From a virus: a stretch of 64,000 bases of DNA. The notes under the pieces are model-generated. The model was not told where the DNA came from and did no database searches. It saw nothing but the letters and a program-made list of their open reading frames with translations. Made by a program: the position numbers and the translations under genes. Shown one piece after another: positions 591 through 35,626 of the stretch. The stretch lies in the IMG/VR virus record IMGVR_UViG_3300030060_005952, positions 1 to 64,000 of that record; one strand, written 5' to 3'. Numbering within the stretch: the stretch's first letter is position 1; every line of letters starts with the position of its first letter.

Positions 591-1301
591 TCACTGTGTA
601 TTGTCATCGAACCATACCCCCCTGTCATCGTATCTCCCAATGTCGCCCTCTTGGTAGAAGTTCCCTGTGTACGCATTGGCAAACTCCCAATGTCCACCGT
701 CAATCTCCCACATGATGTCGTTGAATCTCCATGCGATGTGGTTGCCTTCCATCACTGGCACTTCCATCTGTGAACCAAAGTACACATGGACTCCCATCCT
801 GTTCTCTGGGCTACTGTGCAACTCTCCCATAGGACGTGAAGTCAGTTGCTCAAGGTCTATCTTGTCATTGTCATACAACACCAACGCAATCGGACTGACT
901 TTCATACAGTTGAAGTAGATGTCCACACCATCTTGCATATCATTGTCCACAAGGTAATGTGCAATCGTTGTCGCAACCTTGTAGTTCGACCAAGCTCTGT
1001 CCATCGCACTCTTAAGGAAGGGAGAGTTACTGTTAGTGCAAAAGCCATTCCAATACTCATTTCTGAATGCGTAGTTCAACAAGTCGGGGCCATCGGGAAT
1101 CTCATTGTGCAAACCCATACATGAGTTAGGTGTTCTTCCACAACAAGCTAGGGTTGTGAATGCGTATTCATTGTCGTAGTCTTTGGGTGCGTTAAGGTCA
1201 GCAACGCTTGAGATTGCTCCGCAGTTATTGCACGTAGTATATACGATATTAACAGGGCGTTCTAGGTTAGGTTCAGTATCTTCGATTAACTTGACAGTCA
1301 T
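591..1301 (-). CDS. hypothetical protein, possible N-terminal Zn-binding motif
   Basis: 236-aa ORF with CNNC...CC motif; TATA-like element 26 nt upstream. Confidence 0.75.
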   Translation of the reverse strand: MTVKLIEDTEPNLERPVNIVYTTCNNCGAISSVADLNAPKDYDNEYAFTTLACCGRTPNSCMGLHNEIPDGPDLLNYAFRNEYWNGFCTNSNSPFLKSAMDRAWSNYKVATTIAHYLVDNDMQDGVDIYFNCMKVSPIALVLYDNDKIDLEQLTSRPMGELHSSPENRMGVHVYFGSQMEVPVMEGNHIAWRFNDIMWEIDGGHWEFANAYTGNFYQEGDIGRYDDRGVWFDDNTQ

Positions 1302-1323
1302 CGATAGTCTTCGACTCTACCGG

Positions 1324-1333
1324 TACTTAAAGA
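1324..1333 (-). promoter_or_regulatory. archaeal TATA-like box (CTTTAAGTA) for leaderless transcript of 591..1301
   Basis: TTTAAG on the minus strand about 26 nt upstream of the ATG at 1301, typical archaeal spacing. Confidence 0.55.
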
Positions 1334-1399
1334 GAATCAACTGCGCCGGGTTCAGGCTATCGCAAAACATGAGGGCAATACGTGTATTTCCCAACCGTA

Positions 1400-1690
1400 T
1401 GGGTAGGGGACACGGGGCACAAGGGCGTGCTGTTGCGCAACGCAAGTGTAGCGTTGAGCTATTGTTGATGCGTAGCGCAACGCAACGTGTTTGCGCAATG
1501 GTTTGCGTGGTGGTTGTTGTGCAACTGCGCAACGTGTACACAACAACAACCCTTTGCGCCAACTTTGCGCCACCTGTTAGAAGGAGAGATGCACATTGCG
1601 CCAACAATTGCGCTCTTTTAACCCCACACGGCGCTCCAGCAAATTTTCGTTGGAGGGTTGTTAAAAAAAATTTAAAAAATTTTACAACCC
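1400..1690. repeat. non-coding divergent region with repeated TTGCGC(A/C)A palindromes and an inverted repeat around an A/T core
   Basis: GTTGCGCAAC 1432-1441, TTGCGCAA 1491-1498, TGCGCAA about 1526, TTGCGCC about 1554/1564/1596; GGGTTGTTAAAA...TTTTACAACCC 1655-1690. Confidence 0.7.
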
Positions 1691-1730
1691 AGCGACACCC
1701 CTAAAGACCATTGCTTCCCTCGCACGTTAC

Positions 1731-2024
1731 ATGGGCAGTGCGTTCAATACCGCTTGGACTGTACTCAAGATGGGTCCTATACCTCCAGACTTCGATGATG
1801 AGTATAGCCACAAGGACTTGGACGCAGAGGCCCTCATTGACTTTCTAATAGAGAATCTAGGGATGGAGTACAGCGAGGCCAAAACGCTTGTGACGCACCA
1901 CAAGACGAAGGAAATGGCGTCTGCCAGTAGGCGGAAGGCCATGAAGAACGGCCCCAAGGAGAACGGTAACGGTGGACCGCCAATGCCACCGATGAATGGC
2001 GGTATGCCGGGAATGGGAATGTGA
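1731..2024 (+). CDS. AW-LK leader family protein, unknown function
   Basis: N-terminus MGSAFNTAWTVLK; first gene of the plus-strand block. Confidence 0.8.
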   Translation: MGSAFNTAWTVLKMGPIPPDFDDEYSHKDLDAEALIDFLIENLGMEYSEAKTLVTHHKTKEMASASRRKAMKNGPKENGNGGPPMPPMNGGMPGMGM

Positions 2025-2527
2025 TGAATGCCTTTGAGGAAGCGTGGGGAGTCCTTAAGGCGCTAGAAGAGCAACAACTTATCTCAGGAGATACAGACCA
2101 GTACGAGCATTTATTGAACTATCATTACGATGAAACTGGTCGTCCAGCTCCTGATTCTTACGTAAATTTAGGCACAATGCATCCAGCGGCTCTTGGTATG
2201 GCTCGTAGACAACAAGCAAAGCAACCCGTCGGCACAGTTCAGGTACAAAGGCTAACAAGACCTCACATGTATAATTCAGGAATTGGTAATTATAACACTA
2301 AGTATGGAATACAAGAAAGGACTGGTAACCCCGATTTTGCACCTTATGATGAGAGAAATATAGAAGACATCAAGGCTTATGGTGCGGTTGGAGCATTAGA
2401 CGAACGATTTCCCAAAGTTAGCAGAGAGGGATATGACTTGAGGTACAGTAACATGGTAAAACCAGATTATCCACGTAGGGACCCCATTTATCTTGATACT
2501 CCCTTACAATTAGAAGGAGGAATGTAA
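2021..2527 (+). CDS. AW-LK leader family protein, unknown function
   Basis: N-terminus MNAFEEAWGVLKA; overlaps upstream stop codon. Confidence 0.8.
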   Translation: MMNAFEEAWGVLKALEEQQLISGDTDQYEHLLNYHYDETGRPAPDSYVNLGTMHPAALGMARRQQAKQPVGTVQVQRLTRPHMYNSGIGNYNTKYGIQERTGNPDFAPYDERNIEDIKAYGAVGALDERFPKVSREGYDLRYSNMVKPDYPRRDPIYLDTPLQLEGGM

Positions 2528-3093
2528 TGCCAAAAGACTACAAAGGGGAAAAAACAAAGCCTTCGATGGCTCTAATCATCTCTGTTGGGCCAAAAATGCC
2601 TAAAAAACCACAAGATACCGCTACACCTGATGACAAAGCGATGAAGAAAGCATGGGATTTCATAAAAAACAGAGAACCGGAGCCCTATGATGCTGGTTTT
2701 AAGAGAAATTCACAATCCTTTGGTCTAGGACCCGGTGCTGGGTCGAATTATGAAAGAGCAATTTACGAGGACAGTTTTGAAGACGACGAACCTGCGTTCC
2801 CAGACACCAGTGGTGATTTGGAAGGCATGAGTGCGAACGAAAGGGCGTTGTTCCTAGCTCAACAATCAATGGAGCGACCAGAAAGGACTACCCCTAGCAT
2901 CCATTCTGACCTCACACCAGAAGAATTAGCTAATTTCAGGGCAAAATTAGACCGTATGACACCTACCCCAAAGACAACACCACAAGAAATGGAAGAATAC
3001 ATGCGAAGGCACAGCAGAGGGGACAAAGAAGCACAGAGAAAATTCAGGGAACGTGGCTTTTCAGGCGACCCCAATAGGTATAGAGGTGCATAA
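2527..3093 (+). CDS. hypothetical protein with internal AW-IK motif
   Basis: AMKKAWDFIKN near residue 40; TAATG coupling, GGAGG RBS. Confidence 0.8.
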   Translation: MPKDYKGEKTKPSMALIISVGPKMPKKPQDTATPDDKAMKKAWDFIKNREPEPYDAGFKRNSQSFGLGPGAGSNYERAIYEDSFEDDEPAFPDTSGDLEGMSANERALFLAQQSMERPERTTPSIHSDLTPEELANFRAKLDRMTPTPKTTPQEMEEYMRRHSRGDKEAQRKFRERGFSGDPNRYRGA

Positions 3094-3096
3094 AAC

Positions 3097-3408
3097 ATGA
3101 CTCCCTTTCAAGATGCTTGGAATCTGTTGAAAAATATCACAGATATGGTTGAGTATCCTGAAGGTTCTGGCAATTTTATGTCCCTCAAGGACATGCATGA
3201 GGCGAGAAATGCTCAATCACGGGCTAATTTAGCAGAAATGAATGAAAATCTTAAACAAGGCTACATCAGAAAGCCAAATGTGGCTGTAACGCCTGAAAAA
3301 TATCCAATGCCCTCTACCGCTAGACTTTCATCTATGTTGACTCACGCTAGTGGTAGGTACGACCCTAACAATCCTGATGCAATGCACCCAATGGGGAGTG
3401 GGCAATGA
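3097..3408 (+). CDS. AW-LK leader family protein
   Basis: MTPFQDAWNLLKN; GAGGTG RBS. Confidence 0.8.
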   Translation: MTPFQDAWNLLKNITDMVEYPEGSGNFMSLKDMHEARNAQSRANLAEMNENLKQGYIRKPNVAVTPEKYPMPSTARLSSMLTHASGRYDPNNPDAMHPMGSGQ

Positions 3409-4550
3409 ATGTTTTTGAGTCTGCTTGGCTTTCTTTGTTGAAGCAAACCGATGAATATGACCGTGACTACGATTCAACTGATAGTCTGTATCCGGGTGCG
3501 CCCTTTGACAATGTATTCAGATATGGCAATCAATATTTTGACACATTAGAAGAACTAGAAAATTACATGGGTGGCCTAGATATAAAACCACAACCTGAGT
3601 ATGTTGCTGGTGGTCGTCAGATGAGTTTGAGAAACTACCCTACTGACGATGACGATGTTCGTTATACTCATTCTTTTGACCCTAAATATCTCGGAGAAAA
3701 AATGATTGAGGGATTATCACCCAGAGAGTTAGATAATTACGGGCTTGGCCATAGTTGGGAAATAGAACATGCTGGTGCTGGTCGTAAAGGTCTAGGTATT
3801 ACAAGATTCAAACCAATGACTACTATGTGGAAAGACTCAGAAAAAGCAAGTAAGATATTTTTTAGGAATAATTTTACTGATGACCCCATGACTTTTGACC
3901 ATGAAGGATTGGGTGAAGCTCTTAACCACGCTGCAGAAATAGCAGAATCCAACATAGATGGAAGTAAAATTGATGAGTCTATCATAAGAGCCCGTGACCT
4001 TTATGATACGATGACTGGGCATCAAACAACCGATTTAGGTACTGGTAGAAGAATAAACAGAGTGGATTTTGACCATGATGAAAATACAGAAGAAAAAAGA
4101 ATGGAGGCGGCGGCCGACCTTCTTGATTTCTATAGGGATAATACCTCACCGGCAGCAGAGCATCTAAGAGAAGAATACGACGAGAGCCATTTTTTGGATT
4201 TACTTGAAAGAATACTGAATGACTCTTGGCTAAACGACCCTAAAAACCATGTACCCGGCTTCTTCATTACCGATACTAACCCTTTTTCAGTAGATAGGAT
4301 TTCTTCAATGATAGACGGAACGAGAAACGTAGTTGGCATCAGAAGTAAATTACCAAGCGAACCAACGAAAGAAAGGGGTGCAGGGCAGAGCATAGACTTG
4401 ATACCTGAAAAATTCGTAACAGAACCCATACCACCCGAAGACCTGATTTTTTATCCAGAGACAGGTACTGATTTGGTAGAGAGAGGTAGAATTAAGCCTC
4501 GTTTTCAAGACACAAGACCTCTTTCCGAGCGCACTGAATTTCCCATATAG
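3405..4550 (+). CDS. AW-LK leader protein with PIP-like motif and possible ADP-ribosyltransferase-like fold
   Basis: MNVFESAWLSLLKQ; QMSLRNY; YTHS...EGLSP...KIFF...EKFVTEPIPPEDL pattern resembles small ART-fold domains (by eye). Confidence 0.6.
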   Translation: MNVFESAWLSLLKQTDEYDRDYDSTDSLYPGAPFDNVFRYGNQYFDTLEELENYMGGLDIKPQPEYVAGGRQMSLRNYPTDDDDVRYTHSFDPKYLGEKMIEGLSPRELDNYGLGHSWEIEHAGAGRKGLGITRFKPMTTMWKDSEKASKIFFRNNFTDDPMTFDHEGLGEALNHAAEIAESNIDGSKIDESIIRARDLYDTMTGHQTTDLGTGRRINRVDFDHDENTEEKRMEAAADLLDFYRDNTSPAAEHLREEYDESHFLDLLERILNDSWLNDPKNHVPGFFITDTNPFSVDRISSMIDGTRNVVGIRSKLPSEPTKERGAGQSIDLIPEKFVTEPIPPEDLIFYPETGTDLVERGRIKPRFQDTRPLSERTEFPI

Positions 4551-4580
4551 TGCCTAAAAACAGCATTACGAAGCGTTCAA

Positions 4581-4588
4581 ATATAAAT
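4581..4588 (+). promoter_or_regulatory. TATA box (ATATAAAT) for 4609 gene
   Basis: TATAAA about 27 nt upstream of ATG 4609. Confidence 0.5.
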
Positions 4589-4608
4589 GGTATATCCTAT
4601 TATCCCCG

Positions 4609-4797
4609 ATGAAGGCTACTCCGACCCCCTTTGAACGGGCTTGGTTGCTAATAAAGGGACAACCTCTTGGCATTAAATTCACTAACGAGGAAGAGCAGTT
4701 TATCAACACCGCACTTCATGAGGCAATGACTAGTAAGGACGCTTACAGAAAGAGCGAAGCAAAGGAGCTTTTCTTAGAGTTTCTCAACCACAACTAG
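4609..4797 (+). CDS. AW-LK leader family small protein
   Basis: MKATPTPFERAWLLIKG. Confidence 0.75.
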   Translation: MKATPTPFERAWLLIKGQPLGIKFTNEEEQFINTALHEAMTSKDAYRKSEAKELFLEFLNHN

Positions 4798-5195
4798 TAG
4801 TCAAAACCAGTTGTTGTACTACCACTAGTATCAGCAACCATCTGTTGTCTGTTTTGAGTTTCAGCCATTCTTTGTCTTTCCATAGCCTCTTTTTGGGCTC
4901 TTTCCTGTTGTTTTTCTTTTAATTTCTTCATTGCAGGGTCCATGGCTCCCCTTACTGTCTGGACTTTATCGAGATGAGGAGCTACTTTCTGTGCGACTTG
5001 TCCTGCTGCACTACCCATACGACCTGCCATTGAAGCTAATCTAGCGCCAACTCCCAGTCCAGTCGTAGTAGCACCTGCTGCACCCGCACCTGCTGCACCC
5101 GCACCTGCTGCACCTGCACCTGCACCTGCACCTGCACCTGTACCTGCACCTGCTACTACAGGCGCTACTAGTGGAGCTACTACTGGTGCTGGCAT
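4794..5195 (-). CDS. Ala/Gly-repeat protein, lone antisense gene; probable start ATG 5195
   Basis: MPAPVVAPLVAPVVAGAGTGAGAG... followed by a coiled-coil; TTTTTATG about 25 nt upstream on the minus strand. Confidence 0.6.
   Translation of the reverse strand: MPAPVVAPLVAPVVAGAGTGAGAGAGAGAAGAGAAGAGAAGATTTGLGVGARLASMAGRMGSAAGQVAQKVAPHLDKVQTVRGAMDPAMKKLKEKQQERAQKEAMERQRMAETQNRQQMVADTSGSTTTGFDY
5070..5155. repeat. TGCACC hexamer / GCACCTGCTGCACCC microsatellite
   Basis: tandem TGCACC units encoding GA/GAA repeats. Confidence 0.85.
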
Positions 5196-5247
5196 GATAG
5201 TCGGATAGAGCGGAACATAAAAACAGTATCGCAATGTACCACATTTC

Positions 5248-5457
5248 ATGGGTGACCGTAAGGTATTGGTCTACAAAGGTCGCTCCTACATTCAAGATAG
5301 GCCAAAAAGACTAGCACAAGCCAAAGTGCAGAGGCTTGCTAGAAAAACCAAAAATCGCAAAACTAGAGCTAGGTATGCCCGAAATCTATCTCGTGGCAAC
5401 ATTAGACCAAAGATGCGTAGACAAACCGGACTTGTCAGAGTGGTGAGAAGAAAATGA
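5248..5457 (+). CDS. small Arg/Lys-rich protein, possibly DNA-condensing
   Basis: 69 aa, very basic; N-terminal KVLVYKG; stop overlaps next ATG. Confidence 0.7.
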   Translation: MGDRKVLVYKGRSYIQDRPKRLAQAKVQRLARKTKNRKTRARYARNLSRGNIRPKMRRQTGLVRVVRRK

Positions 5458-6026
5458 ACCCCTTCGACCAAGCATGGGGTTTGCTCAAATCGAGCAGTTT
5501 CACTAAGCCCTCGGAAGTCAGAGCAGGGGAAGCCGGAGGCTCATTAGGTGTATATCAACCATCGAAAGGTAAGGCTTGGACGCATCCATCGAATATCTAT
5601 GCCCATTACAAGGAACTCTATCCCTTTGGGAAGTTTAATGAGGACGCATTGATAAATGAGCTTATAGGGACGGATGTTCACGAATCCATACACGAGGCCA
5701 TGCATAAAGTAGGCGAAACATACGATTCAGGTCTTCATGAGGAATATGCGCCTAATTTAGCCCAGATTTTAGTCCAAGCGAGAATGCCGGGAATATACGG
5801 TGGTAAAAGAAACCAAGTGATGAGGTTAATACATGGTGATAAAGTAAGGGGAGTAGAGCCAAGACCCGACACTCAAGCCGCTATGGATTACACAAGGGAA
5901 TATGCCAATTCTTATGGTTTTAACCATCCTAAAGTAAGGAAACCAACGGAAGAGGATGGAAAGTTGTTTACGTATGGCCATACCGAACCTGAGTTCTACA
6001 CTGGATATGGAGAGGACTTAGAATGA
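5454..6026 (+). CDS. AW-LK leader protein with zincin-like metallopeptidase motif
   Basis: MNPFDQAWGLLKS; HESIHEAMH...HEEY (HExxH). Confidence 0.65.
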   Translation: MNPFDQAWGLLKSSSFTKPSEVRAGEAGGSLGVYQPSKGKAWTHPSNIYAHYKELYPFGKFNEDALINELIGTDVHESIHEAMHKVGETYDSGLHEEYAPNLAQILVQARMPGIYGGKRNQVMRLIHGDKVRGVEPRPDTQAAMDYTREYANSYGFNHPKVRKPTEEDGKLFTYGHTEPEFYTGYGEDLE

Positions 6027-6442
6027 ACCCCTTCGACCAAGCGTGGGTACTACTCAAGATGCCACAAGAGGCGAGGGCGTTCGCAGAGCAAGCGCACGAG
6101 GGCCAGATGTATGGTGAAGACCCGTATATGTACCATGTCGATGAGGTAGCGAATCAGTTTCAAGACCCTCTTTTGCAGAGAATAGCGTATCTGCACGACG
6201 TGGTTGAGGATGGCAAGGTTTCAGTAGAGGACATACACGATAGATTCGGAGAGGATGTAGGTCACGGTGTAGATGCAATGACTAGAAGACCAAATGAGAA
6301 CTACTTTGATTACATAGGAAGAGTAAGTGAACATCCACATGCTAGACAGGTCAAGATGGCAGACCTTACTCACAATCTGAGTGGCGACCCACCCGGAGGT
6401 CTGAGACAACGATACGAGAAAGCACTGGAGATGTTGTCATGA
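6023..6442 (+). CDS. AW-LK leader plus HD-domain hydrolase (RelA/SpoT HD, Mesh1/SAH-like)
   Basis: FAEQAHEGQ...PYMYH...AYLHDVVED...VKMADLTHN motifs. Confidence 0.85.
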   Translation: MNPFDQAWVLLKMPQEARAFAEQAHEGQMYGEDPYMYHVDEVANQFQDPLLQRIAYLHDVVEDGKVSVEDIHDRFGEDVGHGVDAMTRRPNENYFDYIGRVSEHPHARQVKMADLTHNLSGDPPGGLRQRYEKALEMLS

Positions 6443-7356
6443 ACCCTTTTGAGCAAGCTTGGATGCTTTTGCTGAAGGAGATGCTACCTCCTAATTACAC
6501 ACAAATTGGTAACGAAGAGAAGGATTTGAATGCAGCAGAGAGAGCTTGGCAGATGCAATATGCAAAACCAAACCCTGTCACTGCTCCACAAGTAGACGTT
6601 TCTAGGCCCCCTGTTGCTAATTTAGGTGAGAACTTCTTTGGACCACATTCTCATGAAAGACTAACTGACAGAGATAGAGTGGTGGACGAGGGGGAACAAC
6701 AAGAAGTCAGAGATAGAATATCTATGGCAATGGGTCAGTTTTTGGATGAATATGGTCTTTACAAACCCGGAGCACCAAGAAATCTAGCAATTAGAACACA
6801 TCTTTTGAATGAGCACAGAAGACCAGATGAAACTTACACAAAGAGCAACGGTGATTCAATTGTCGCTATCGTAAGACCACATAGAAAAAATAACATGAAA
6901 CCTGAGCTAAACACAGTCATGCTACGCCGCTCGGAGATGCATCACGAGGCACCTCAACCATTCAAGGCTGCCGCTATGAGTGTCGATAAAGTAGTAAATG
7001 CACACGGCATGTCGAAGAAACAGATGAAGAGGCTGGCGGCCATGAGAAGACAAAATCGCGCCATCCGAACTGGGGAGCCAATGGACATCGCAATGCAGTT
7101 GCTCAAGGAGCGCAAGTCGCCAGAGGCTATGAGGCGTAAGTTGGAGTATGACAAGAGGTATGAAAAGACCCCTGAGAGAAGAAAGTACCAACGTGAATTA
7201 CACGCTGAAAGAAGAAAAAGAGGTATTTACGGCTCTGGCGACCACATGGATGTGAGTCACACACAAGGCGGTAAGTTGACTCTTGAGCCTGAGCATGCTA
7301 ATAGAGCTAGACATTTCAAGAATCGAGGTACTCTAAGGAGAGTGAAAGTAAGATGA
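6439..7356 (+). CDS. AW-LK leader protein with a second internal leader preceding an HNH-like C-terminal module
   Basis: MNPFEQAWMLLLKE; internal MDIAMQLLKE (ATG 7081); DHMDVSH...EHANRAR. Confidence 0.65.
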   Translation: MNPFEQAWMLLLKEMLPPNYTQIGNEEKDLNAAERAWQMQYAKPNPVTAPQVDVSRPPVANLGENFFGPHSHERLTDRDRVVDEGEQQEVRDRISMAMGQFLDEYGLYKPGAPRNLAIRTHLLNEHRRPDETYTKSNGDSIVAIVRPHRKNNMKPELNTVMLRRSEMHHEAPQPFKAAAMSVDKVVNAHGMSKKQMKRLAAMRRQNRAIRTGEPMDIAMQLLKERKSPEAMRRKLEYDKRYEKTPERRKYQRELHAERRKRGIYGSGDHMDVSHTQGGKLTLEPEHANRARHFKNRGTLRRVKVR

Positions 7357-8135
7357 GACAGACTGAACTCGGTGAGTTTCATGAGGGCTTTTCCAGTAGC
7401 AAGGGACCTGTTAGTGAGTATCATGGTACGGTAGATATGCCAGCGGTTATGGAAGAGGGAATCAGGGGAGGTCCAACCACAGGTAGGTCCAAACGCTATA
7501 TCCCTGAATCACTAAGAGGACAAGAAAAAATATCTTACACTTCACCTGATAGAGAGCTGGCACTCAGGTTTGCACAAGAAAGAGCCAAAAAGCTAGGCTT
7601 GCCTCAGAGCAACGTAGGCGTGGTTGGCGTGAGAGCAGGGGAACTTTCAGAACCAGTGAGACAAGCAGAGCCAGCAGGTGGTGTATTTGCTGGAACTGAT
7701 AGTAATGTCAGGGCTGGTGGAATACCCAGACAGAACCTCGTACCATTGACTTTGAAATCCAATATCTCTATCTCCGACCCACCGCTCGGCGTTAGTATGG
7801 AAGCTTTCACCGCAGCGTGGAATGTGTTGAAAGCGACCTTACCGATAAAGCCTGAAACAATGCAAGGTGCGACTGACCCTAGAAGATATCGTAATTACAA
7901 ACAGACGGGTGGTGTCGCTCGACGGGCTAGAGAAAGATTGATGGATGAAACGGCTTCAATGGATGCAGATGTGGATGATGAGCAATTAATGGGTAGAAAA
8001 AATCCCATCCTTGATATTTATGGTGATGACACAGTCTACCCTCCTGACGCCGTACCCATTGAGCCTCTACCGGAGGATATGCGAGAGTACCGCATCCGGA
8101 GAGACGGAGATGCGTATTTCTATGGACAAGAGTGA
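7353..8135 (+). CDS. PIP-box plus ART-like domain fused in frame to a second AW-LK leader module (ATG 7797)
   Basis: MRQTELGEF; EYHGT...SYTSPDRELALRFA...GGIP; internal MEAFTAAWNVLKA. Confidence 0.65.
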   Translation: MRQTELGEFHEGFSSSKGPVSEYHGTVDMPAVMEEGIRGGPTTGRSKRYIPESLRGQEKISYTSPDRELALRFAQERAKKLGLPQSNVGVVGVRAGELSEPVRQAEPAGGVFAGTDSNVRAGGIPRQNLVPLTLKSNISISDPPLGVSMEAFTAAWNVLKATLPIKPETMQGATDPRRYRNYKQTGGVARRARERLMDETASMDADVDDEQLMGRKNPILDIYGDDTVYPPDAVPIEPLPEDMREYRIRRDGDAYFYGQE

Positions 8136-8155
8136 TAATGTATAGGTGATTACTG

Positions 8156-8506
8156 ATGAATGGGACTTGTGATTGTTGCTCTCCTATGCAACAAGCCTCT
8201 GTCGCTCTCCTTGATGGCTATTTTGAGAAGGGAAAAAAGAAGTCGAAGCCGTTTCACGGTTACAATCCTAAGAGACATCACAAGAAAGGCGGGTTGAATC
8301 AAGCAGGTCGTGACAAGTTCAAGCGAGAGACAGGTGCGAACCTGAAACCGCCAGTCACAACTAAGCCATCAAAACTCAAACCCGGAAGCAAGAAGGCGAA
8401 AAGACGCAAATCCTTCTGCGCTCGCATGAGTGGTAGTAAAGGTCCAACCAGCAAGGACGGCAAACTTACACCGAAAGGTGCGGCATTGAAGAGGTGGAAC
8501 TGCTAA
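8156..8506 (+). CDS. small basic protein of a family common in marine phages (DUF6321-like)
   Basis: KGGLNQAGR...NLKPPV...RRKSFCARM...ALKRWNC. Confidence 0.7.
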   Translation: MNGTCDCCSPMQQASVALLDGYFEKGKKKSKPFHGYNPKRHHKKGGLNQAGRDKFKRETGANLKPPVTTKPSKLKPGSKKAKRRKSFCARMSGSKGPTSKDGKLTPKGAALKRWNC

Positions 8507-8682
8507 TGGCGCTCAAAAGAAACAGTTGCTGTTGCGGTGGTAGCAAGAAGAATCCGTGTAAATGTATGGAAAAAGGAGTGATGAAGTGCTCCATGACACC
8601 ACCCCGATGTCCATGCTACAGTCTACTACATGCGCAGAGGAAGGCTGCTGATAAATTAACAAAAATGGTGTTTGTGATATGA
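8506..8682 (+). CDS. small Cys/Lys-rich protein (probable start ATG 8506)
   Basis: TAATG coupling; CCCGG...CKC...C...CPC. Confidence 0.6.
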   Translation: MALKRNSCCCGGSKKNPCKCMEKGVMKCSMTPPRCPCYSLLHAQRKAADKLTKMVFVI

Positions 8683-8873
8683 TAGGTTCTTGTGGTTGTG
8701 GTCATTGCGTCGGTATGAGTGGTGCTTGGGATGCTTTGGAAAAGAAGCTCTGTCCAGAAGGAAAAGCGGCTGCAAAAAGAAAATTCAAAGTTTATCCCTC
8801 TGCCTATGCTAATGGATGGGCCGTACAGTATTGTAGAGGAAAATTCAGAGGCAAGAAGGGGAAGAAGAAATGA
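8679..8873 (+). CDS. small basic protein (PSAYA motif, DUF5872-like N-part)
   Basis: MSGAWDALEKK...KFKVYPSAYANGW. Confidence 0.7.
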   Translation: MIGSCGCGHCVGMSGAWDALEKKLCPEGKAAAKRKFKVYPSAYANGWAVQYCRGKFRGKKGKKK

Positions 8874-9190
8874 GCGAACGCTGCACTTGCCACAATACGT
8901 TAGTTGTGAAGAACCTCAATCGTTGGTTCAAGGAGAAGTGGGTGGACGTATCGAGAAAGGACCCGAAAACAGGCAAACATCCCCCGTGTGGACGGTCAAA
9001 GGCAAAATTATCAGGAAAGGGTTACCCGAAATGCAGACCCTCAGTAAAAGTGTCGAGCAAGACTCCGAAGACATCTGGAAGCATGTCAGGTGGACAGAAA
9101 CAGGCCGCAACAAAAAGAAAAAGGGCAAAAAAGCAGGGTGTTGGTGGGAAACCGACGATTGTTAAGTCATATTGGGTTAAAATCGTATAA
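8870..9190 (+). CDS. small basic protein (LxRWFKEKWVDV motif, DUF5872-like C-part)
   Basis: LNRWFKEKWVDV...PCGRS...YPKCRP. Confidence 0.7.
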   Translation: MSERCTCHNTLVVKNLNRWFKEKWVDVSRKDPKTGKHPPCGRSKAKLSGKGYPKCRPSVKVSSKTPKTSGSMSGGQKQAATKRKRAKKQGVGGKPTIVKSYWVKIV

Positions 9191-9266
9191 TTCTAATTAT
9201 TCTATTATTCCTTTAGATACAATAATAATTATTATAGTGTATAGATAGAATAATGAATAATTGGAA
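9191..9266. repeat. AT-rich imperfect palindrome of about 76 bp
   Basis: arms TTCTAATTATTCTATTATTC (9191-9210) and GAATAATGAATAATTGGAA (9248-9266) around the perfect 14-bp palindrome ATAATAATTATTAT (9222-9235). Confidence 0.8.
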
Positions 9267-9330
9267 ATATCCTCCTGTCTAACCTACAATTGGGTCAAAA
9301 CTCTTAAGATGTCCCCTATGTTGGCACGGC

Positions 9331-9978
9331 ATGAGGTCGGTTCACATGGATTGGAACAATGATGGTCAGGTTGATAACGCTGAACTAAGATTAACAGGTT
9401 TGATTTTAGCACAATCAGCACTAATAGGAGTAGCAGTGGGAGTCTTTGACTCAGGTATTTGGTTGCCAGCAGGTAATGGTGACCACGTTGTAAATGGCAT
9501 GACGTACGCAATGGGCGCTTTAGCAGTTCAAATTCTAGCTTATTACGTTTTCAAAATGTTCTTTGAGCAGTCAATGAAGGTTAGAGTGAATACACAAAAT
9601 CTACAACGTGATAGGGAAATCAGACTTAGAAGCATGCAAACAGAGCATGAACAGAGAAGGATAGATATGGAGCTTAGAATACAAGAGATGCAATTAGAAA
9701 GAGAACTCATGGCATTCAAGCAAAATCCTAGTCTTTTAATGCAGGAAACAATTACTGTGCCAGCTCCACCCAAACCCCAGAGTGGTGTAATGAGCTTAGG
9801 TTTGGATAGAATTGGAAATACGCAGGAAACATATACACCTCCTAGAGTTGTGCAAAATCCCGGCGTTACCACACTTTCTTTAAATCAAATGGCTGATGAT
9901 TTGGTAAAGGAAGAAAACAACAGTAATGTGCGTTTGAAGAAGGATGGAACCCCAGACCTTAGATACAAAAAGAGTTGA
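9331..9978 (+). CDS. two-TM membrane protein with EF-hand-like N-terminus and coiled coil
   Basis: DWNNDGQVDNAE; two hydrophobic helices; E/R/Q coiled coil; C-terminal RLKKDGTPDLRYK. Confidence 0.75.
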   Translation: MRSVHMDWNNDGQVDNAELRLTGLILAQSALIGVAVGVFDSGIWLPAGNGDHVVNGMTYAMGALAVQILAYYVFKMFFEQSMKVRVNTQNLQRDREIRLRSMQTEHEQRRIDMELRIQEMQLERELMAFKQNPSLLMQETITVPAPPKPQSGVMSLGLDRIGNTQETYTPPRVVQNPGVTTLSLNQMADDLVKEENNSNVRLKKDGTPDLRYKKS

Positions 9979-10247
9979 GGGAGCCTTCAATGGGACGTAT
10001 ATTCAAAACGCCAAAGGATGATTCTGTAGAAGAAACTTTGAGAGCCATGCATTTGGCTAATACTTTTGATAATACTTACGAATGGGGCATTGGTTGGCTT
10101 AGAACAATCATCATCAGTGGCGCTACTGCTCTCGCAGTTAGTGCAATAGAAGCTAACAGCGCATACAGTCTTTGGGAATTGACTGTTGAGTGGGGATACA
10201 GACAAGTAAGCTCTTTTGGAAATTGGTTGCTTGGACTGGTGCCTTAA
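9975..10247 (+). CDS. small membrane protein (start possibly ATG 9990)
   Basis: hydrophobic IGWLRTIIISGATALAVSAI segment; GAGGGAG RBS before ATG 9990. Confidence 0.65.
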   Translation: MREPSMGRIFKTPKDDSVEETLRAMHLANTFDNTYEWGIGWLRTIIISGATALAVSAIEANSAYSLWELTVEWGYRQVSSFGNWLLGLVP

Positions 10248-10961: not shown

Positions 10962-10996
10962 GTGACCTTTTTGATGTATAACGTTGTGCGATTAAC

Positions 10997-13023: not shown

Positions 13024-13055
13024 AATTATCAAACTACCCACCACATCGGGGTATC

Positions 13056-13733: not shown

Positions 13734-14134
13734 TTTCCATAAGCGACCTCATGCAAATTACTCATCCCGGTCACAGACATTACATTTCTCAGAAAAATAT
13801 ACATGATGATGATTTGCCACTTTTCTTAGATTATTGTGTAACAGTCGTTGAGAGGTTTAATCATCATTCGGAAAAGAACTTTCAGACCAGTCTTGAAAAC
13901 AAAAATTGTATAGTGAACATAGTTGATTTAATGGCTTCTTTACATATGACTGATGAGCCTGAAGATGTGTTTGAAATTAGAAAGAAATTACACAGAGAAT
14001 TATCAAATTTTGATTATGTTTGTACAGTCATGGCTAGATGTTTCGTTAGTCCGGGGTTTGTAAAAGAATTCTATGAAAATCTTTCTAAGAAGCTAAATGA
14101 TGAAATATCAGCATACGCGGGGTTGGAATTATGA
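13730..14134 (+). CDS. hypothetical protein
   Basis: 134-aa ORF, coupled to both neighbours. Confidence 0.7.
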   Translation: MISISDLMQITHPGHRHYISQKNIHDDDLPLFLDYCVTVVERFNHHSEKNFQTSLENKNCIVNIVDLMASLHMTDEPEDVFEIRKKLHRELSNFDYVCTVMARCFVSPGFVKEFYENLSKKLNDEISAYAGLEL

Positions 14135-15438
14135 CGGAGGGGATGCAGGGACGTTCCTCCGATACGAGGATGTATAATCCACGTAGTGAATCCTCCCATA
14201 TGTATCGTAATAATCACGAAGAAGATACATACAGTCCTGATGATGCAAAGCATCGTGATGAGCGTTATGAGGAAAAGCAAAAGAAGAAGGAAAAAGAAAA
14301 GAAAGAACGTGATAAAGTAAAGCATATTCGTATCAGACCCAAAGACCTACCACCTTCAGAAGATGAAAATGACGATGATGAAGATGAAGGTATGTACAAA
14401 CCTGACAAAAGAAATGCTGAGAGAGAAATCTCAGCTATCACTGGACCACCCGGCAACGGTGGTTTTCTCACGAGTCTTGCTACACAAGCAAAAGGACCCG
14501 GCGCTGCTGGTGGAAATATGTTCGCCATGAGTGAGGTTATGGATGATGCTTGGTCTAGTCTTTTAAAATCAAAAGAAAGTAAGAAAGCAAAGAAAGATAA
14601 GAAAGAGAGAAGTAAGAAATTCCGACCTTCTACGGGACAATTCAAGACTCCACCCGGTGGTTCAATGGGACCGAAAGGAGCCACTGAAAGAAGAAGAAAA
14701 AGTGTTAGAAGGGCTGTTTCAAGAGGTAAGTTGACCGGAATGAAAGATGCTCCAAAAGCAGTTGAGATGGAACACAGGGGTGTGTCGGTCAAACAACCAT
14801 TATCAAAAGACCCTGCTAGATACAGAGATTATCAAGGTACAATGGAAGCCAGAAAAAGACTAGGTGGAGTAAGACAAGACACATCTTCACAAAGAAGATT
14901 CGGGCAAAGAAAATACCAAGCAGGACCAACTGGTGGCGGTAGACTTCTTGGTGGCGTTGGTGTTAGAAAACCCAGAATACACTCTCCTAGAATGTCACAT
15001 AGAGTTTCGATGCCTCATTTGAACAGACCTAAAACTCCTTCTGCTGGATTATCAATGGGTAAAATGGGTCTAAGACAAAGCGTAATGGGACCTCCACCAG
15101 TAACGGCGATAGCTCCACCAGCACCAATGCCAAGTCCAAATCAACAGTTTCAAATGAGTTCTGATTACGTGCCTTACAGCGATATTCTCAAAGCAAAAAT
15201 TACAGCATCGGACATAGCCGAGATGAGAAGAATGCTGTTTGAAATTAGAAGAGAACTCAAAGACAAGGACAAAAAGAGCAAATCGATGGGAACCAAAGAC
15301 ACTGCTGGAGCTGGGGATGACAAACCCAAAAGCAAGAATGGTGGATTCAAACAGACCTCACGACCACAAGGGGGAACCGAGGACGCCACTGATATGACGG
15401 GTATCCTTCCTGAAAATCGTGGGGGAGCCACCGCATGA
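14131..15438 (+). CDS. basic, low-complexity putative internal head protein with internal AW-LK motif
   Basis: MDDAWSSLLKS, DILKA; K/R-rich. Confidence 0.7.
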   Translation: MTEGMQGRSSDTRMYNPRSESSHMYRNNHEEDTYSPDDAKHRDERYEEKQKKKEKEKKERDKVKHIRIRPKDLPPSEDENDDDEDEGMYKPDKRNAEREISAITGPPGNGGFLTSLATQAKGPGAAGGNMFAMSEVMDDAWSSLLKSKESKKAKKDKKERSKKFRPSTGQFKTPPGGSMGPKGATERRRKSVRRAVSRGKLTGMKDAPKAVEMEHRGVSVKQPLSKDPARYRDYQGTMEARKRLGGVRQDTSSQRRFGQRKYQAGPTGGGRLLGGVGVRKPRIHSPRMSHRVSMPHLNRPKTPSAGLSMGKMGLRQSVMGPPPVTAIAPPAPMPSPNQQFQMSSDYVPYSDILKAKITASDIAEMRRMLFEIRRELKDKDKKSKSMGTKDTAGAGDDKPKSKNGGFKQTSRPQGGTEDATDMTGILPENRGGATA

Positions 15439-29855: not shown

Positions 29856-31280
29856 TTGCATTTCTTCATTAGTGTGCTGTCACAAGAGCGTCTCTATGGT
29901 GTTGATGAGTCCATTGGACTCCTTAAGGCTGGCAATGACCTCGTTGTTGCAGGATACGCTAGTGTGGAGCTAGTAGACAAACAAGGCGATTTAATTACAA
30001 AGGAGGCATTGAAGGACGGATTTCGGAAGTTTATGAGCGACCCGAAATATAGAAACGTCCAACTAGCGCACTCAAATATACAGGTAGGAGAAGTAGTACC
30101 ATCATATACAGATACAGAAGGGAGGTTATGGAAAAGCGAAGTTGACGATGTCGGCATGTTTGTAGTAATACAGCTCAGAGACGACATCGAAAAAGCACGA
30201 GAAGTTGCCGCCGAAATCAGGAAAGGCAAACTAAGGGGATTCAGCATCGGAGGACAAGCATTCAAGCGAGTCAGAAAGAGCGACCCAAGACACGGCGACT
30301 ATCAAGAAATCAGCAAGCTTGAGCTTCATGAAATCACAATTTGTGAAAAAGGGATAAATCCAGAAGCGACATTTAGAATTCTAAAGCAGGAGACTGACTC
30401 AGAAAACATAGAAAAAAATAAGGTGAAAAAAATGACAGATGAAAATGACATGCAGACACAGTTGGGTGACGTTCTTACTCGACTAGAAAGTAGGCTCGAC
30501 AGTATGGAGAAAGGAATGCCTCCACAACTGAAAGAAGCCATGAAAGACAAGAAGGATGACAAGGACGACAAAGACAAGGCCATGGCAGACAAGAAGAAAG
30601 ATGAGGACAAAGATGAGAAAATGTACGCAGATGAAGCTAAGAAATCTGATGACTACTCTGATGTTATCTCATCTGAGTACCTTGACTGGATGGAGAACAC
30701 TCTAAAGAGTGCCGGAGTCGATGTCGCAGGGGCTAGGGGTCACTTTGACGACCTAGCAAAAGCTAACCTTGGCTCTACTCCTGAAGAGTTTGACCTAGAT
30801 TACGGTCAGACCCCTAACAGAGAGTCCGAAGGTGGCAAGCCTTCAACAAACGCCATAGCAAGACTAGGTGGAAAAGGAGAGAAGAAAGAGGTCAAGAAAT
30901 CTGACTTCCTAACTCCAGACCTAGTATCAGAGGCAGATGTAGAAGCCGCATACGAAGTTTACAAGGCTGCTGCAATGGAGCAGGAGTTCAGGGGTTCACT
31001 AGAATCCCGATTTGCAGACAGATTTGCTAATGAGAGAGCAGAAGAAGTCGCAAAGGCAGAAGCCGCAGCATATGATGCACGCGGTCCTCTTGACGAGGTA
31101 ATGAAGGCTCTTGGTGCTCTTAATGAGAGAATCGACAACATAGGAACAGTTGAAGCTGGCACTCCAATCGCTAAGAGCGAGGCAGAGCCAGCAGTAGAAA
31201 TACCCTCCACAGTAGACATGCACAGAATGTCATGGGATGAGGTTCACGCCCTAGCAGATAAGGCATTTAGAGGAGAGTGA
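29856..31280 (+). CDS. HK97-type prohead protease fused to scaffold
   Basis: VAGYASVELVDKQGD, LAHSN (His), GFSIGG (Ser), LHEITICEKGINPEA; charged coiled-coil C-half. Confidence 0.93.
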   Translation: MHFFISVLSQERLYGVDESIGLLKAGNDLVVAGYASVELVDKQGDLITKEALKDGFRKFMSDPKYRNVQLAHSNIQVGEVVPSYTDTEGRLWKSEVDDVGMFVVIQLRDDIEKAREVAAEIRKGKLRGFSIGGQAFKRVRKSDPRHGDYQEISKLELHEITICEKGINPEATFRILKQETDSENIEKNKVKKMTDENDMQTQLGDVLTRLESRLDSMEKGMPPQLKEAMKDKKDDKDDKDKAMADKKKDEDKDEKMYADEAKKSDDYSDVISSEYLDWMENTLKSAGVDVAGARGHFDDLAKANLGSTPEEFDLDYGQTPNRESEGGKPSTNAIARLGGKGEKKEVKKSDFLTPDLVSEADVEAAYEVYKAAAMEQEFRGSLESRFADRFANERAEEVAKAEAAAYDARGPLDEVMKALGALNERIDNIGTVEAGTPIAKSEAEPAVEIPSTVDMHRMSWDEVHALADKAFRGE

Positions 31281-31285
31281 GATAT

Positions 31286-32416
31286 ATGGCAAGAAATTAC
31301 GTACGAACAATAACAGACATGGAGCGCTATTACTATGGCGCCGGAAACGCAATGGGTTACTCCTACTCCGGTAGTGAGCTACTCAAGGCTGACAGCCCTA
31401 TGCTGTCCACGACTGCTGGTACATACCAAGCAATCTACGGGCGCAAGGTCTGGTCGCAACTCAACCAAGAGTTCAACGCATTCAGCATCCTACCCAAGAA
31501 GCCTTGGGACAGGTCAGGATGGAGAGTTATCACAGGCAAGCCAAACGGCGGTGCCCTACACGGCGGAGTTGCAGAAAACGCAACACTGCCAGACACTGTG
31601 AAGCCTACCTTCCAGCACGTAGCTGCAAAACCAAAGACGGTCGCACACACATTCGACATGTCCGAGACAGCTATCTTCCTAGCAGACAGAGACGATGGAT
31701 TGGGAGATATCCGCTCAGTCTTAAAGGAAGAAATGGGCAAGCACCACGCTGAGATGGTCAATAAGATGCTACTAACAGACGTTACAACTGCAGCAGCTAA
31801 CAACTTTGAGTCGCTAGACAGGGTTACCACTGGAAACACATCAATGACATCTGGCACTCACTACGACGCTGGAGATGAAGACATCTACTCCATCGACAGA
31901 AGCGCCAACACATGGGCCTTCGCAGAAGATGAGGCTAACAGCTCCAGCACAAACAGGACACTGTCCCTAGACCACTTGGACACTTTGTTCCAACAAATCT
32001 GGGAGCGCGGTGGAAACCCCAAGGTCATCCTAACAGGATACGACACTCTGATGAGACTACAGCAACTGCTACAGTCCCAGCAGAGGTTCATGGAAGAGAA
32101 GAGAGTTACCCCAACCTACAACGGTGTGAAGGGTGTCCCCGGTGTAGAGGCAGGGTTCATCGTGGCAACCTACAACGGAGTACCAATCATTCCAACCAAG
32201 GACATGCCAAAGGACAGCTTGAGCAGGATGTACTTCCTAGACACAGACTATGTGCACTTTAGCACAGCTATTCCTACGCAATACTTTGAGAGCGGAATTG
32301 AGACTGGTGACCCATTCGCCATCAACAGGCTAGGACAGGAAGGACTGTACCGAACCATGGGCGAGATATGGACCACTTTCTTTGGAGCACACGGGAGCAT
32401 TCGTGACCTAAAGTGA
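31286..32416 (+). CDS. mcp: major capsid protein (HK97 fold)
   Basis: position after protease; IYGRKVWSQLN, YNGVPII, MYFLDTD motifs; resembles halovirus/magrovirus MCP. Confidence 0.92.
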   Translation: MARNYVRTITDMERYYYGAGNAMGYSYSGSELLKADSPMLSTTAGTYQAIYGRKVWSQLNQEFNAFSILPKKPWDRSGWRVITGKPNGGALHGGVAENATLPDTVKPTFQHVAAKPKTVAHTFDMSETAIFLADRDDGLGDIRSVLKEEMGKHHAEMVNKMLLTDVTTAAANNFESLDRVTTGNTSMTSGTHYDAGDEDIYSIDRSANTWAFAEDEANSSSTNRTLSLDHLDTLFQQIWERGGNPKVILTGYDTLMRLQQLLQSQQRFMEEKRVTPTYNGVKGVPGVEAGFIVATYNGVPIIPTKDMPKDSLSRMYFLDTDYVHFSTAIPTQYFESGIETGDPFAINRLGQEGLYRTMGEIWTTFFGAHGSIRDLK

Positions 32417-33830: not shown

Positions 33831-34115
33831 ATGGGTTTCGATTTGCAGACTCTCGATATTGACGACATCGAAAGGGCTCAAAAGCAGAACATTCGTTCAG
33901 ATACTCATTATCAGGCTAATGTAGTGGTTGATGAAAAGAATCCCCTGAAAGGGGCGATTAGCAAGCAAAGAGCAAATGCCAAGAAAGCCGCCGATGTACT
34001 CAATATAGGCTCAGGCACTCGATGTACTCACTGTGGTCTTCTTCACTTTATGTGGAGGGAAACCTGTGGCTCCTGTAGAAAACCCATGAACTATAACATG
34101 GGGGTCAAAGAATGA
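33831..34115 (+). CDS. Zn-ribbon protein
   Basis: CTHCG...CGSC. Confidence 0.7.
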   Translation: MGFDLQTLDIDDIERAQKQNIRSDTHYQANVVVDEKNPLKGAISKQRANAKKAADVLNIGSGTRCTHCGLLHFMWRETCGSCRKPMNYNMGVKE

Positions 34116-35626
34116 CATTTCAGTATTCTTGGGACTTTCTCAAAGCCAAGAAAAAGAAGAAGAAATCAAAAACTGGTACGAAATACGTTAGACTGCAAGG
34201 CGGTGGTCGTGGTGGAGCAAAACTTCAATCATTAAGCAAGTATATCACTGATGTGGCTAAGAACAAATATCTACGGGAAGAAGCTCCAAATTTGGGTCCT
34301 GAAATTTTCAAAAAGCCCACAGAAGTACCACCACTCAAGGATGGACTTGATAGGTCCAAACCCAAAAATCAAATAATGATTGATAGACATTCACAAGCTA
34401 CCAATGAATACGAAAGAAAAATGAAAAACTATCGACATTTCTGGGACAAAGTAAATGAAATTAAAAGTGAATTAAACAGTTATTATTATAAAAATGGTCA
34501 TGATGCATTCATGAGGAAATATAAGGATTATGCAAAGCCAGCTTCTGAAGTAGGAAAACTAACTGGTGCAGAGTCAAGAGCTGCTAAAACTGGTAGAATG
34601 GATGCTTTGGATAATCAATTGACTTCAGAGCAAATGGAAGCTGAGAAACCAGTAGACCCTATTGAATATTTGAAAAACAGATTGGCTTCTAAGACGCCTG
34701 AGAGTGAAAGTGATGTCAATTCTTTGATGACGGGTTTGTTGAGTCAAATGGGCCCCGATGCTTTATCCGACTCTGAGCAAAAAGAATTAAGAAATGTTTT
34801 AACACAAAAGTATAACATACAACCAGAATCTATGGCTGATAAACTAAAGCGTGAGTTGAACGTGCAGCGTAGACAACCAGAATCCAGAACTTCCAAAGAG
34901 GAAATGATGGCCGATTTGGATAAATTGCCTGAAGACATAGACTTTCAAACAGGCTCAAAAGCCCTCCTAGAAGGTTTTCAACCACAAGGAATGCAGGACA
35001 TTAACAAAAAGGCTCACTCTTTACTAAGTCTTATGAATCCCGAAGAAAGAACTGACGATTCTTGGGGTAAGATAAGAAATGCTCTTGCACAAAAATATGG
35101 CTTCGATGTCCCCGAAGCATCTCCAGCGGCTAATATAGCAGCTGCTAATCTAGCGAGAAATCCAATTCTACCAAAACCATCAGAGGAAAAGCCACCAGTG
35201 ATGCCACCACAAGGTCAAATGACACTAGACCAATTTGGGAAACCACCCACGAGAAAACCACCAGTGAGGGTTTCCAGACCTGTTCAAGAGAAAGTAAAGG
35301 AGCCCGCACAATTAGCACAAGAACAATCTGACAGACGTTTCGATGAGAGACAGGCAAAGACAGAACAATTCTTTGCACCTGAACCAACACCTGCACCGAG
35401 CGATGAACTTACTGATGAGCAAAGGGCAAAAATAGCACAAGCTTACCCTGATGTGAAACCATTACAACCAGACATGCCTGACATATTTGATGCAGGTGGT
35501 AACCTTTCCCAGACAATGCCTGAGCCCAGTCCTTCATCTCAAGGAGCTGGTTCATCTGAAGTAATAGGTAATTTATTCGACCAGATGATGGATAACTTTA
35601 GACGAGAACAAGGAGCTGGTCAATAA
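34112..35626 (+). CDS. AW-LK-type leader protein with PIP box, inserted in the neck region
   Basis: MTFQYSWDFLKA; GQMTLDQF; more AT-rich than its neighbours. Confidence 0.75.
   Translation: MTFQYSWDFLKAKKKKKKSKTGTKYVRLQGGGRGGAKLQSLSKYITDVAKNKYLREEAPNLGPEIFKKPTEVPPLKDGLDRSKPKNQIMIDRHSQATNEYERKMKNYRHFWDKVNEIKSELNSYYYKNGHDAFMRKYKDYAKPASEVGKLTGAESRAAKTGRMDALDNQLTSEQMEAEKPVDPIEYLKNRLASKTPESESDVNSLMTGLLSQMGPDALSDSEQKELRNVLTQKYNIQPESMADKLKRELNVQRRQPESRTSKEEMMADLDKLPEDIDFQTGSKALLEGFQPQGMQDINKKAHSLLSLMNPEERTDDSWGKIRNALAQKYGFDVPEASPAANIAAANLARNPILPKPSEEKPPVMPPQGQMTLDQFGKPPTRKPPVRVSRPVQEKVKEPAQLAQEQSDRRFDERQAKTEQFFAPEPTPAPSDELTDEQRAKIAQAYPDVKPLQPDMPDIFDAGGNLSQTMPEPSPSSQGAGSSEVIGNLFDQMMDNFRREQGAGQ

Follow-up and report, generated by a model that had tools for sequence, protein, structure and literature searches.

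Why should a row of otherwise unrelated proteins, encoded by a virus of marine archaea, begin with the same dozen residues? The question is raised by a stretch of 64,000 nucleotides (nt), hereafter the window, which is the first 64 kb of the 99.6-kb viral record IMGVR_UViG_3300030060_005952 of IMG/VR; coordinates are those of the window unless the genome is named. The source virus is a magrovirus, a tailed virus of about 100 kb from abundant marine archaea, and is assigned as such because its gene combination is that of the magroviruses of Marine Group II archaea [as described by Philosof et al. (PMC5434244)]. The shared peptide, called the tag here, spans 12 residues with the pattern M-x-[A/P]-F-[D/N/E]-x-A-W-x-h-L-K (h, hydrophobic residue). 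By analogy with known systems, we hold it, as the best of the readings considered, slightly more probable than not that the tag is a portable sorting and processing signal of one magrovirus lineage, by which proteins would be loaded into the procapsid, cleaved, and injected.

The tag occurs in the window in 13 copies, nine at the starts of open reading frames (ORFs; at 1731, 2024, 3097, 3405, 4609, 5454, 6023, 6439, and 34112) and four internal. All 13 had been pointed out in a first-pass annotation of the sequence and were found where it had placed them, the second with its ATG at 2024 and a GTG at 2021, the start given earlier. The ORFs are listed below, together with one that carries a second type of junction (aa, amino acids; pI, isoelectric point; ART, ADP-ribosyltransferase; ↓, known or candidate processing site or junction).

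1731..2024, plus strand: 97-aa ORF; N-terminal tag MGSAFNTAWTVLK (nt 1731-1769).
2024..2527, plus strand: 167-aa ORF; tag MNAFEEAWGVLK (nt 2024-2059).
2527..3093, plus strand: 188-aa ORF; conserved module of about 38 aa ('ALIISVGPKMPKKP'), then internal tag MKKAWDFIK (nt 2641-2667), a layout that recurs in relatives.
3097..3408, plus strand: 103-aa ORF; tag MTPFQDAWNLLK.
3405..4550, plus strand: 381-aa ORF; tag MNVFESAWLSLLK, a variant with a one-residue insertion.
4609..4797, plus strand: 62-aa ORF; tag with four extra residues ahead, MKATPTPFERAWLLIK.
5454..6026, plus strand: 190-aa ORF; tag MNPFDQAWGLLK; cargo with an HExxH string and no family match.
6023..6442, plus strand: 139-aa ORF; tag MNPFDQAWVLLK, then an HD phosphohydrolase beginning with Met.
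6439..7356, plus strand: 305-aa ORF; tag MNPFEQAWMLLLK; basic cargo, pI 10, the C-terminal part of which matches phrog_6437, a family of unknown function.
7353..8135, plus strand: 260-aa two-module protein; putative ART-like N-domain, linker, internal tag MEAFTAAWNVLK (nt 7797-7832), module 'ATLPIKPET...'.
8156..8506, plus strand: 116-aa basic DUF6321 protein; module behind the second junction type, CDCC..QQASVALLDGYFEK↓GKKKSKPF.
8679..8873, plus strand: 64-aa Cys-rich basic protein; truncated tag MSGAWDALEK (nt 8715-8744), at the Met of which relatives start directly.
14131..15438, plus strand: 435-aa protein; internal tag MDDAWSSLLK (nt 14539-14568), then a very basic C-terminal half.
34112..35626, plus strand: 504-aa ORF in the head-tail module; tag MTFQYSWDFLK.

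The motif is rare outside these places. The regular expression [AS]W.{1,3}[LIVFE]K, run over six frames of the window, gave four additional matches, all in non-coding frames; the stricter h..[AS]W.{2,3}hK gave 12 matches in the called ORFs of the 99.6-kb genome, nine of them within the first 9 residues, and residue shuffles of the ORFs (n = 200) gave a mean of 0.44 and a maximum of 2 under the same strict expression.

In relatives, the tag stands on other cargoes (cargo, the protein behind the tag). Of 11 loci obtained with the HD protein as query, 7 matched residues 1-14 or 1-16 only, that is, the tag on a different cargo; a DNA-pattern scan for F-D-Q-A-W-x-x-L-K gave 50 stretches, most of them on contigs that also carry the major capsid protein (MCP) of this virus. 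The counts given here were made on a set of relatives of 62 sources (marine viral loci; 691 kb). It holds 204 N-terminal copies, 155 of them non-redundant, and the 155 tagged proteins fall into 78 unrelated cargo clusters (BLASTP, 1e-4) with cargoes of 51-551 aa. The consensus in relatives is M-[T/N/S]-[A/P]-F-[D/N/E]-x-A-W-x-[L/V/F]-L-K, and the M-x-x-F geometry is dominant (141 of 196 ATG-starting copies). Pfam families were hit by 3 of 75 cluster representatives (HD, DUF6321, and double zinc ribbon); a PHROGs search of 75 cargo representatives added mostly unannotated families.

Several activities had been read into the cargoes of the window by the first-pass annotation. The HD hydrolase was borne out and the ART-like fold was kept as a lead; the 'zincin' amounts to the HExxH string, and the 'HNH-like' protein to a match with an unannotated PHROG. 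For the N-domain of the 7353 protein, the best PDB matches are KptA/Tpt1, the A chains of pertussis and cholera toxins, Arr, and TreX, all of the ART superfamily and all with weak E-values, from 5e-3 upward; its language-model look-alikes agree with an ART-like fold. We regard the predicted fold as a lead towards an ART-like domain.

Similarity between the tagged proteins stops at the Lys, as had been claimed. Mean pairwise identity between cargo clusters is 0.63 over residues 1-12 and 0.067, 0.058, and 0.056 over the next three windows of 12 residues; column information falls from 3-4 bits in the tag to less than 0.5 bit after K12, with weak preferences only at the first two positions behind the Lys (A/M/S, then P). 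Over 60 unrelated clusters, conservation of the W, K, F, and A of the tag exceeds 95%; its net charge is about 0, and an acidic or polar residue is kept at position 5. The codons use every synonymous alternative (Ala7, GCG, GCT, and GCA; Lys12, AAA and AAG; Leu, all six codons). Since synonymous codons vary in this way, it is the peptide that is conserved and under selection, with a small residue of shared DNA: the fraction of same codons at identical tag residues is 0.458, against 0.386 expected from the codon usage of the cargoes. Purine-rich motifs resembling ribosome-binding sites lie ahead of most starts, and many of the genes overlap by ATGA.

The Lys is near-invariant also where the search did not require it. 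Among 185 non-redundant F-x-x-[AS]-W contexts, K was found at W+4 in 163 and at W+5 in 9 more (172 together), and Arg at W+4 in 2 only. At the position directly behind the Lys (P1'), Ala is enriched (17 of 78 clusters, p = 2e-5), as is Met (10 of 78 clusters, p = 1e-3). In the HD protein, the Met behind the tag aligns with the start codon of a leaderless homolog, 36% identical and encoded on an unrelated viral contig, which suggests that here the tag was grafted onto a complete ORF.

A look-alike of the form x-x-AW-x-x-LK starts a conserved 225-aa protein of the replication arm (genome positions 87082-87759, minus strand; L167:3082-3756), for which no Pfam hit was obtained. It was left uncounted because the Phe is missing and the Lys is absent from the ortholog in one complete relative (G002, below); it is probably a chance resemblance or a decayed tag rather than a true copy.

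The tag is also a joint between protein modules. In homologs of the 7353 protein, five recurring modules are joined in varying orders: the putative ART-like domain, the basic DUF6321 module, the 'ATLPIKPET' module, the 'ALIISVGPKMPKKP' segment, and a basic Cys/His module (DUF5872). Each downstream module stands directly behind a tag (AF-x-AAW-x-VLK↓) or behind the second junction (CDCC...QAFG-x-L-x4-FEK↓), the DUF6321 module in relatives behind either of them, and the ART-like module itself ends in h-h-K↓S (LTLK↓S). In the AlphaFold2 (AF2) model of the 7353 ORF, the N-domain is confident (residues 12-132; predicted local distance difference test, pLDDT, about 90) and the internal tag forms a helix by itself (149-162), with a low-confidence linker on either side. 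The family of the 14131 protein has one tag here, three in relative G001, and two in relative G003 (AF in place of AW), and these tags bracket inserted modules; the family gave no hit in G002. In G001, moreover, another tagged cargo runs on in frame into the same tag and HD domain as at 6023.

The same boundaries separate viral populations. Contigs of four marine metagenomes from three studies were aligned on positions 1300-9300. They diverge from the window at 5453 and 6439, in both cases the base before the ATG of a tag; at 5477, the last base of the Trp codon; at 5488, inside the Lys codon, where they continue as K-MPEVT... or K-MPLVPG...; and at 2529 and 8499, where they run on into other tags. 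Beyond the breaks at 5453, 5477, 5488, 6439, and 2529, all of them edges of tags, different cargoes follow. Because the points of divergence coincide with the edges of tags, cargo exchange takes place at the tag. The DNA of the tags at 5454 and 6023 is near-identical. The description of a modular tag on interchangeable, unrelated proteins, put forward from the window by itself, is thus upheld by the 78 cargo clusters, the shuffling of modules, and the population breakpoints at the edges of tags.

Where the tagged genes lie was compared among this genome and three whole relatives, G001, G002, and G003 (estimated completeness 89-100%). The head, tail, and replication modules are syntenic in all four. 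The tagged genes form a hypervariable array with few BLAST hits across genomes, which in every genome lies upstream of the terminase, on the MCP strand. Of 34 tagged ORFs in the four genomes, 32 are on that strand; its share of the coding residues is about two thirds. The head genes referred to are as follows.

18554-20029, plus strand: large terminase (TerL).
21262-23040, plus strand: portal.
29856..31280, plus strand: prohead serine protease (Peptidase_S78) fused to a coiled-coil scaffold; candidate processing enzyme.
31286..32416, plus strand: MCP (SU10/HK97 type); real start, ATG 31286.

G002, which is complete according to CheckV, gave no BLASTP hit to the whole block at 9331-17801 between the array and the terminase (a membrane/GTPase cassette, the 14131 protein, and a 788-aa protein), and the block is on that account classed as accessory, not core, from sequence comparison. 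Five tagged genes are nevertheless kept in G002 directly upstream of TerL, and its head-tail module holds two further tagged genes, one of them in the slot of 34112 but a different gene. In most relatives, the membrane/GTPase cassette adjoins the array.

A candidate for the enzyme that would act on the tag is encoded in the same head module as the MCP. The protease matches PF04586 (5e-9), phrog_23555, and phrog_80 ('head maturation protease'), and is also XkdF-like. In the MCP, SELLK34↓A35D does not vary among the relatives retrieved; at 64-66% identity, MCPs keep TDLLK↓AD, and that of the haloarchaeal siphovirus HVTV-1 aligns as MSK↓AD. The protease varies at its N-terminus, where an obvious ATG is often missing, as far as h-h-K followed by A, G, or S (here GLLK↓AGND), and is strongly conserved thereafter; in the scaffold part, a conserved x-K↓S lies just ahead of the C-terminal MSWDEVH helix. 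HK97 protease gp4 cuts its capsid protein after Lys103 (K103↓S104), and the MCP and protease sites, as read from the sequence, would fit a protease that likewise cuts after Lys and before a small residue. An LLK-A/S site had been proposed at the end of the N-terminal segments of three proteins: in the MCP and the protease it is present and conserved; in the 1747-aa protein of the head region the example is weak, because its DLLK↓S is ALID↓S in G001.

Two observations on the same proteins are added. A 110-aa coiled-coil protein (23451-23783) ends in MSWEEIH..., like the MSWDEVH... of the protease-scaffold, and the helix is kept in relatives; the shared end is possibly the coat-binding helix of two scaffold proteins. 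In a 109-kb relative (G010, C1:85046-86227, loci L164/L165), the MCP match is split in two (query 3-198 and 185-378) inside a single open frame, which may be a small insertion or an alignment artefact.

How, then, might the tag work? We picture a short amphipathic helix with a flexible linker behind it, by which, as the head is assembled, tagged proteins would be docked in the procapsid, either on its inner shell or on the protease-scaffold core. A cut by the S78 prohead protease behind the invariant Lys would then release the cargo within the head, to be delivered along with the DNA. Cargoes of this kind would include the HD hydrolase, the ART-like domain, small basic Zn/Cys proteins, and many ORFans. 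The 36-nt stretch that encodes the tag would serve in addition as a recombination joint, at which cargo genes could be swapped, added, or fused into polyproteins, each module of a polyprotein being preceded by a tag of its own. The invariant Lys, the P1' Ala, the placement on the structural strand, the MCP and protease sites in which a small residue follows Lys, and the precedents of T4 and P1 are all consistent with capsid loading; procapsid binding, cleavage, packaging, and injection are proposed from those precedents. The fuller version, in which an HK97-type protease cuts the tag after Lys and a population-variable arsenal of enzymes is injected into Marine Group II archaea, we consider plausible at a little under an even chance; the candidate arsenal would comprise the ART-like domain, the HD hydrolase, basic DNA-binding proteins, and dozens of ORFans.

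Several results weigh against loading into the head. The cargoes of this genome are for the most part acidic (pI about 5), unlike the T4 internal proteins, which are basic. Among distant relatives with the same MCP family, no shared leader and no tag array were found in the cultured HVTV-1 (35 kb around the head module), and the whole genome of Methanofastidiosa virus vir519 showed no shared leader. The generic site [LIVMF][LIVMFT]K[ASG] was not enriched relative to shuffles in the head, array, tail, or replication block. One lineage has T, S, or A for the Leu before the tag Lys (P2) and keeps LLK in its MCP, and no co-variation at P2 between tag variants and the MCP or protease sites was detected in diverged lineages. 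The AF2 model of the MCP, at a mean pLDDT of 31, was unusable for placing K34 where the N-arm starts; the MCP profile, searched against PDB sequences, found a weak internal match only. The array lies at the very start of the structural strand, beside a divergent intergenic region, and for this reason could be transcribed early. Finally, the conservation of F, D, A, and W exceeds the needs of a cleavage site, and the partner of the tag may on that ground be something other than the head.

A different partner is what a second reading supposes, to which we give a low but real probability: the tag would be a docking helix for another machine (a membrane, the viral thermosome, or a host hub protein), would not be removed in the head, and would concentrate accessory proteins at the site of that partner during infection. 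The tag is amphipathic, with F, A/W, and L/L on one face; a group II chaperonin is encoded in the genome, T4 propeptides are said to recruit chaperonins (PMC10052503), and the membrane/GTPase cassette lies beside the array in most relatives; the array is promoter-proximal, and most cargoes are acidic. Membrane-targeting helices are cationic, however, unlike a tag of net charge about 0 with an acidic or polar position 5; G002 has tags without the GTPase cassette; tagged genes also lie within the head-tail module; and a strict Lys without Arg, the P1' Ala, and tags at every polyprotein junction suit a scissile site better.

That the tag is mainly a recombination joint, 36 nt kept for homologous recombination of cassettes and encoding a peptide of little function, we judge improbable. 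Population breakpoints exactly at the edges of tags, the near-identical DNA at 5454 and 6023 with a slightly raised same-codon fraction (0.458 vs 0.386), the tag copies that bracket inserted modules, and a Met behind the Lys that resembles a fossil start codon would all be explained. Free synonymous sites with fixed amino acids are unexpected for an element that acts as DNA, as is the conservation of W, K, F, and A above 95% over 60 unrelated clusters. Recombination is compatible with a sorting and processing tag and is better seen as its second function.

More improbable again is a recognition sequence for a modifying enzyme with many substrates, acting on the invariant Lys or as a maturase in the style of ribosomally synthesized and post-translationally modified peptides. 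An invariant Lys could be a site of modification, but neither the array nor its flanks yielded a radical-SAM, transferase, or ligase family, and Pfam hits to proteins of the tagged region are almost absent; the only obvious peptide-acting enzyme common to all four genomes is the S78 protease, the block beside the array is missing in G002 with the tags kept, and the cargoes are full-size folded domains, unlike short precursor peptides. Hardly credible is the remnant of a paralogous family with C-terminal parts diverged beyond recognition: adjacent tagged genes could stem from tandem duplication, but identity drops from 63% to 6-7% within one residue, the cargoes (51-551 aa, 78 clusters) include an HD domain with leaderless homologs elsewhere and an ART-like fold, and the tag is also internal, at module junctions. 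Four further candidates were rejected: a secretion signal (Sec, Tat, or archaeal class III), as there is no hydrophobic core, only five hydrophobic positions amid D, Q, and K, followed by polar, Pro-rich sequence; a PIP (PCNA-interacting protein) box, as the spacing misfits Qxx[LIM]xx[FY][FY]; an mRNA or DNA element as the sole explanation, as synonymous sites vary; and an encapsulin cargo-loading peptide, as the tag is N-terminal or junctional and belongs to a virus with terminase, portal, protease, and tail genes.

Shared leaders as such are known, and what is new here is their occurrence in an archaeal virus with an HK97-type protease; in the magrovirus papers searched by text, a leader, propeptide, or N-terminal motif is not mentioned. 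The closest precedent is the capsid-targeting sequence (CTS) of the T4 internal proteins, 10-19 N-terminal residues that attach to the assembly core and are cut off by the prohead protease gp21 (PMC9026906). For the packaging of foreign proteins, the first 10 residues of IPIII are enough; Alt, which is packaged as well, is an ADP-ribosyltransferase; and the CTS has been proposed in review as an evolutionary device for packaging varied proteins (PMC9026906). Like the CTS of IPI, IPII, IPIII, and Alt, the tag is a short N-terminal peptide on dissimilar proteins that ends at a protease-type site, a candidate one here, with a variable set of tagged genes whose cargoes include an ADP-ribosyltransferase type (putative here) and small proteins. 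Reportedly, the ip loci of T-even phages are polymorphic as well, and all of their ORFs keep the CTS (Repoila et al. 1994). The two differ in that their sequences are unrelated; in the site, L/I-x-E↓ in T4 and the candidate h-L-K↓ here; in the protease, gp21 in T4 and a Peptidase_S78 fused to a scaffold here; in the host, which is archaeal here; and in the repertoire, which here is much larger (78 clusters, 62 loci), with a tag that doubles as a polyprotein joint and cargoes that are mostly acidic. Because the protease is of the HK97-type S78/XkdF-like kind and the tag is unrelated to the T4 CTS, the relation is one of analogy, not homology.

HK97 shares with this virus a Peptidase_S78 protease and the fold of the MCP family, and its cleavage site of Lys and then a small residue resembles the candidate site of the tag. 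It has no counterpart of the 12-residue F..AW..LK helix, and the magrovirus differs in a protease fused to the scaffold and an N-terminal MCP segment of only 34 residues; to our knowledge, HK97 does not package tagged cargo. In P1, DarB's N-terminal 30 residues are enough to bring a heterologous reporter into the capsid, and Dar cargo is delivered to the host, where it counters defence (PMC9024508). DarB resembles the tagged proteins in having an N-terminal signal; it differs in that the signal is known for one protein, with no tag across unrelated proteins, and in the lack of sequence similarity. In the giant phages phiKZ and SPN3US, many internal head proteins are processed at a short motif (PMC10052503); as proposed here, a prohead protease processes many head-internal proteins, and polyprotein-like substrates are cut at several sites, but the motif is A-x-E↓, the propeptides are mostly of 111-254 residues with no single short tag, and the protease is of another family (PMC10052503). 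Encapsulin cargo-loading peptides, too, are short and address diverse enzymes into an HK97-fold shell; they are usually C-terminal, uncleaved, part of a non-viral compartment, and without sequence similarity to the tag.

The remainder of the genome is described briefly. Its plus-strand head-tail module also holds the 1747-aa head-region protein and the tail genes, and a family B DNA polymerase, a group II chaperonin, an ERCC4 nuclease, and a C5 methylase are encoded on the minus strand. MCP relatives are encoded in more than 598 IMG/VR contigs, the best 80 being 81-100% identical; by MCP, the nearest isolates are the haloarchaeal siphoviruses HCTV-1 and HVTV-1 (34% identity). Between terminase and portal, an HNH-endonuclease-like ORF (phrog_5046, 20126-21280) is kept in relatives, and the terminase of HVTV-1 is likewise flanked by HNH genes. 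A 5549-aa ORF of the tail region (42981-59630) is conserved along almost its entire length in three relatives, at 49-53% identity. Within the otherwise plus-strand array, a 151-aa ORF with a Gly/Ala repeat is predicted on the minus strand (4794-5249; repeat flagged at 5080-5161), adjoined by a predicted, untagged, and extremely basic 69-aa ORF on the plus strand (5248-5457). A genome scan with the viral thermosome as query returned only the magrovirus-like NZMJ01000138.1 (L168), a 21.8-kb contig of a metagenome-assembled genome labelled Maricaulis sp., with a chaperonin that shares 88% identity with that of the virus; most likely, the contig belongs to a magrovirus and was binned with a bacterial genome by mistake.

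Magroviruses are among the commonest viruses of ocean archaea. Neither they nor their hosts have been brought into culture, and the bulk of their genes are ORFans, so that a tag which marks virion proteins would define candidate effectors of host takeover or anti-defence within a hypervariable region, and would make them testable by metaproteomics or heterologous assembly without a cultured host. The tag also illustrates how a single short peptide can serve in addition as a recombination joint and so drive both the exchange of cassettes and the formation of polyproteins. If the proposed function is true, the tag would give the first evidence of effector injection by archaeal tailed viruses and be the first CTS-type tag for an HK97/S78 head; it would serve as a computational marker of injected proteins and as a portable packaging tag, and the principle of the T4 CTS would extend to archaeal viruses and to the widespread HK97/S78 type of head assembly.

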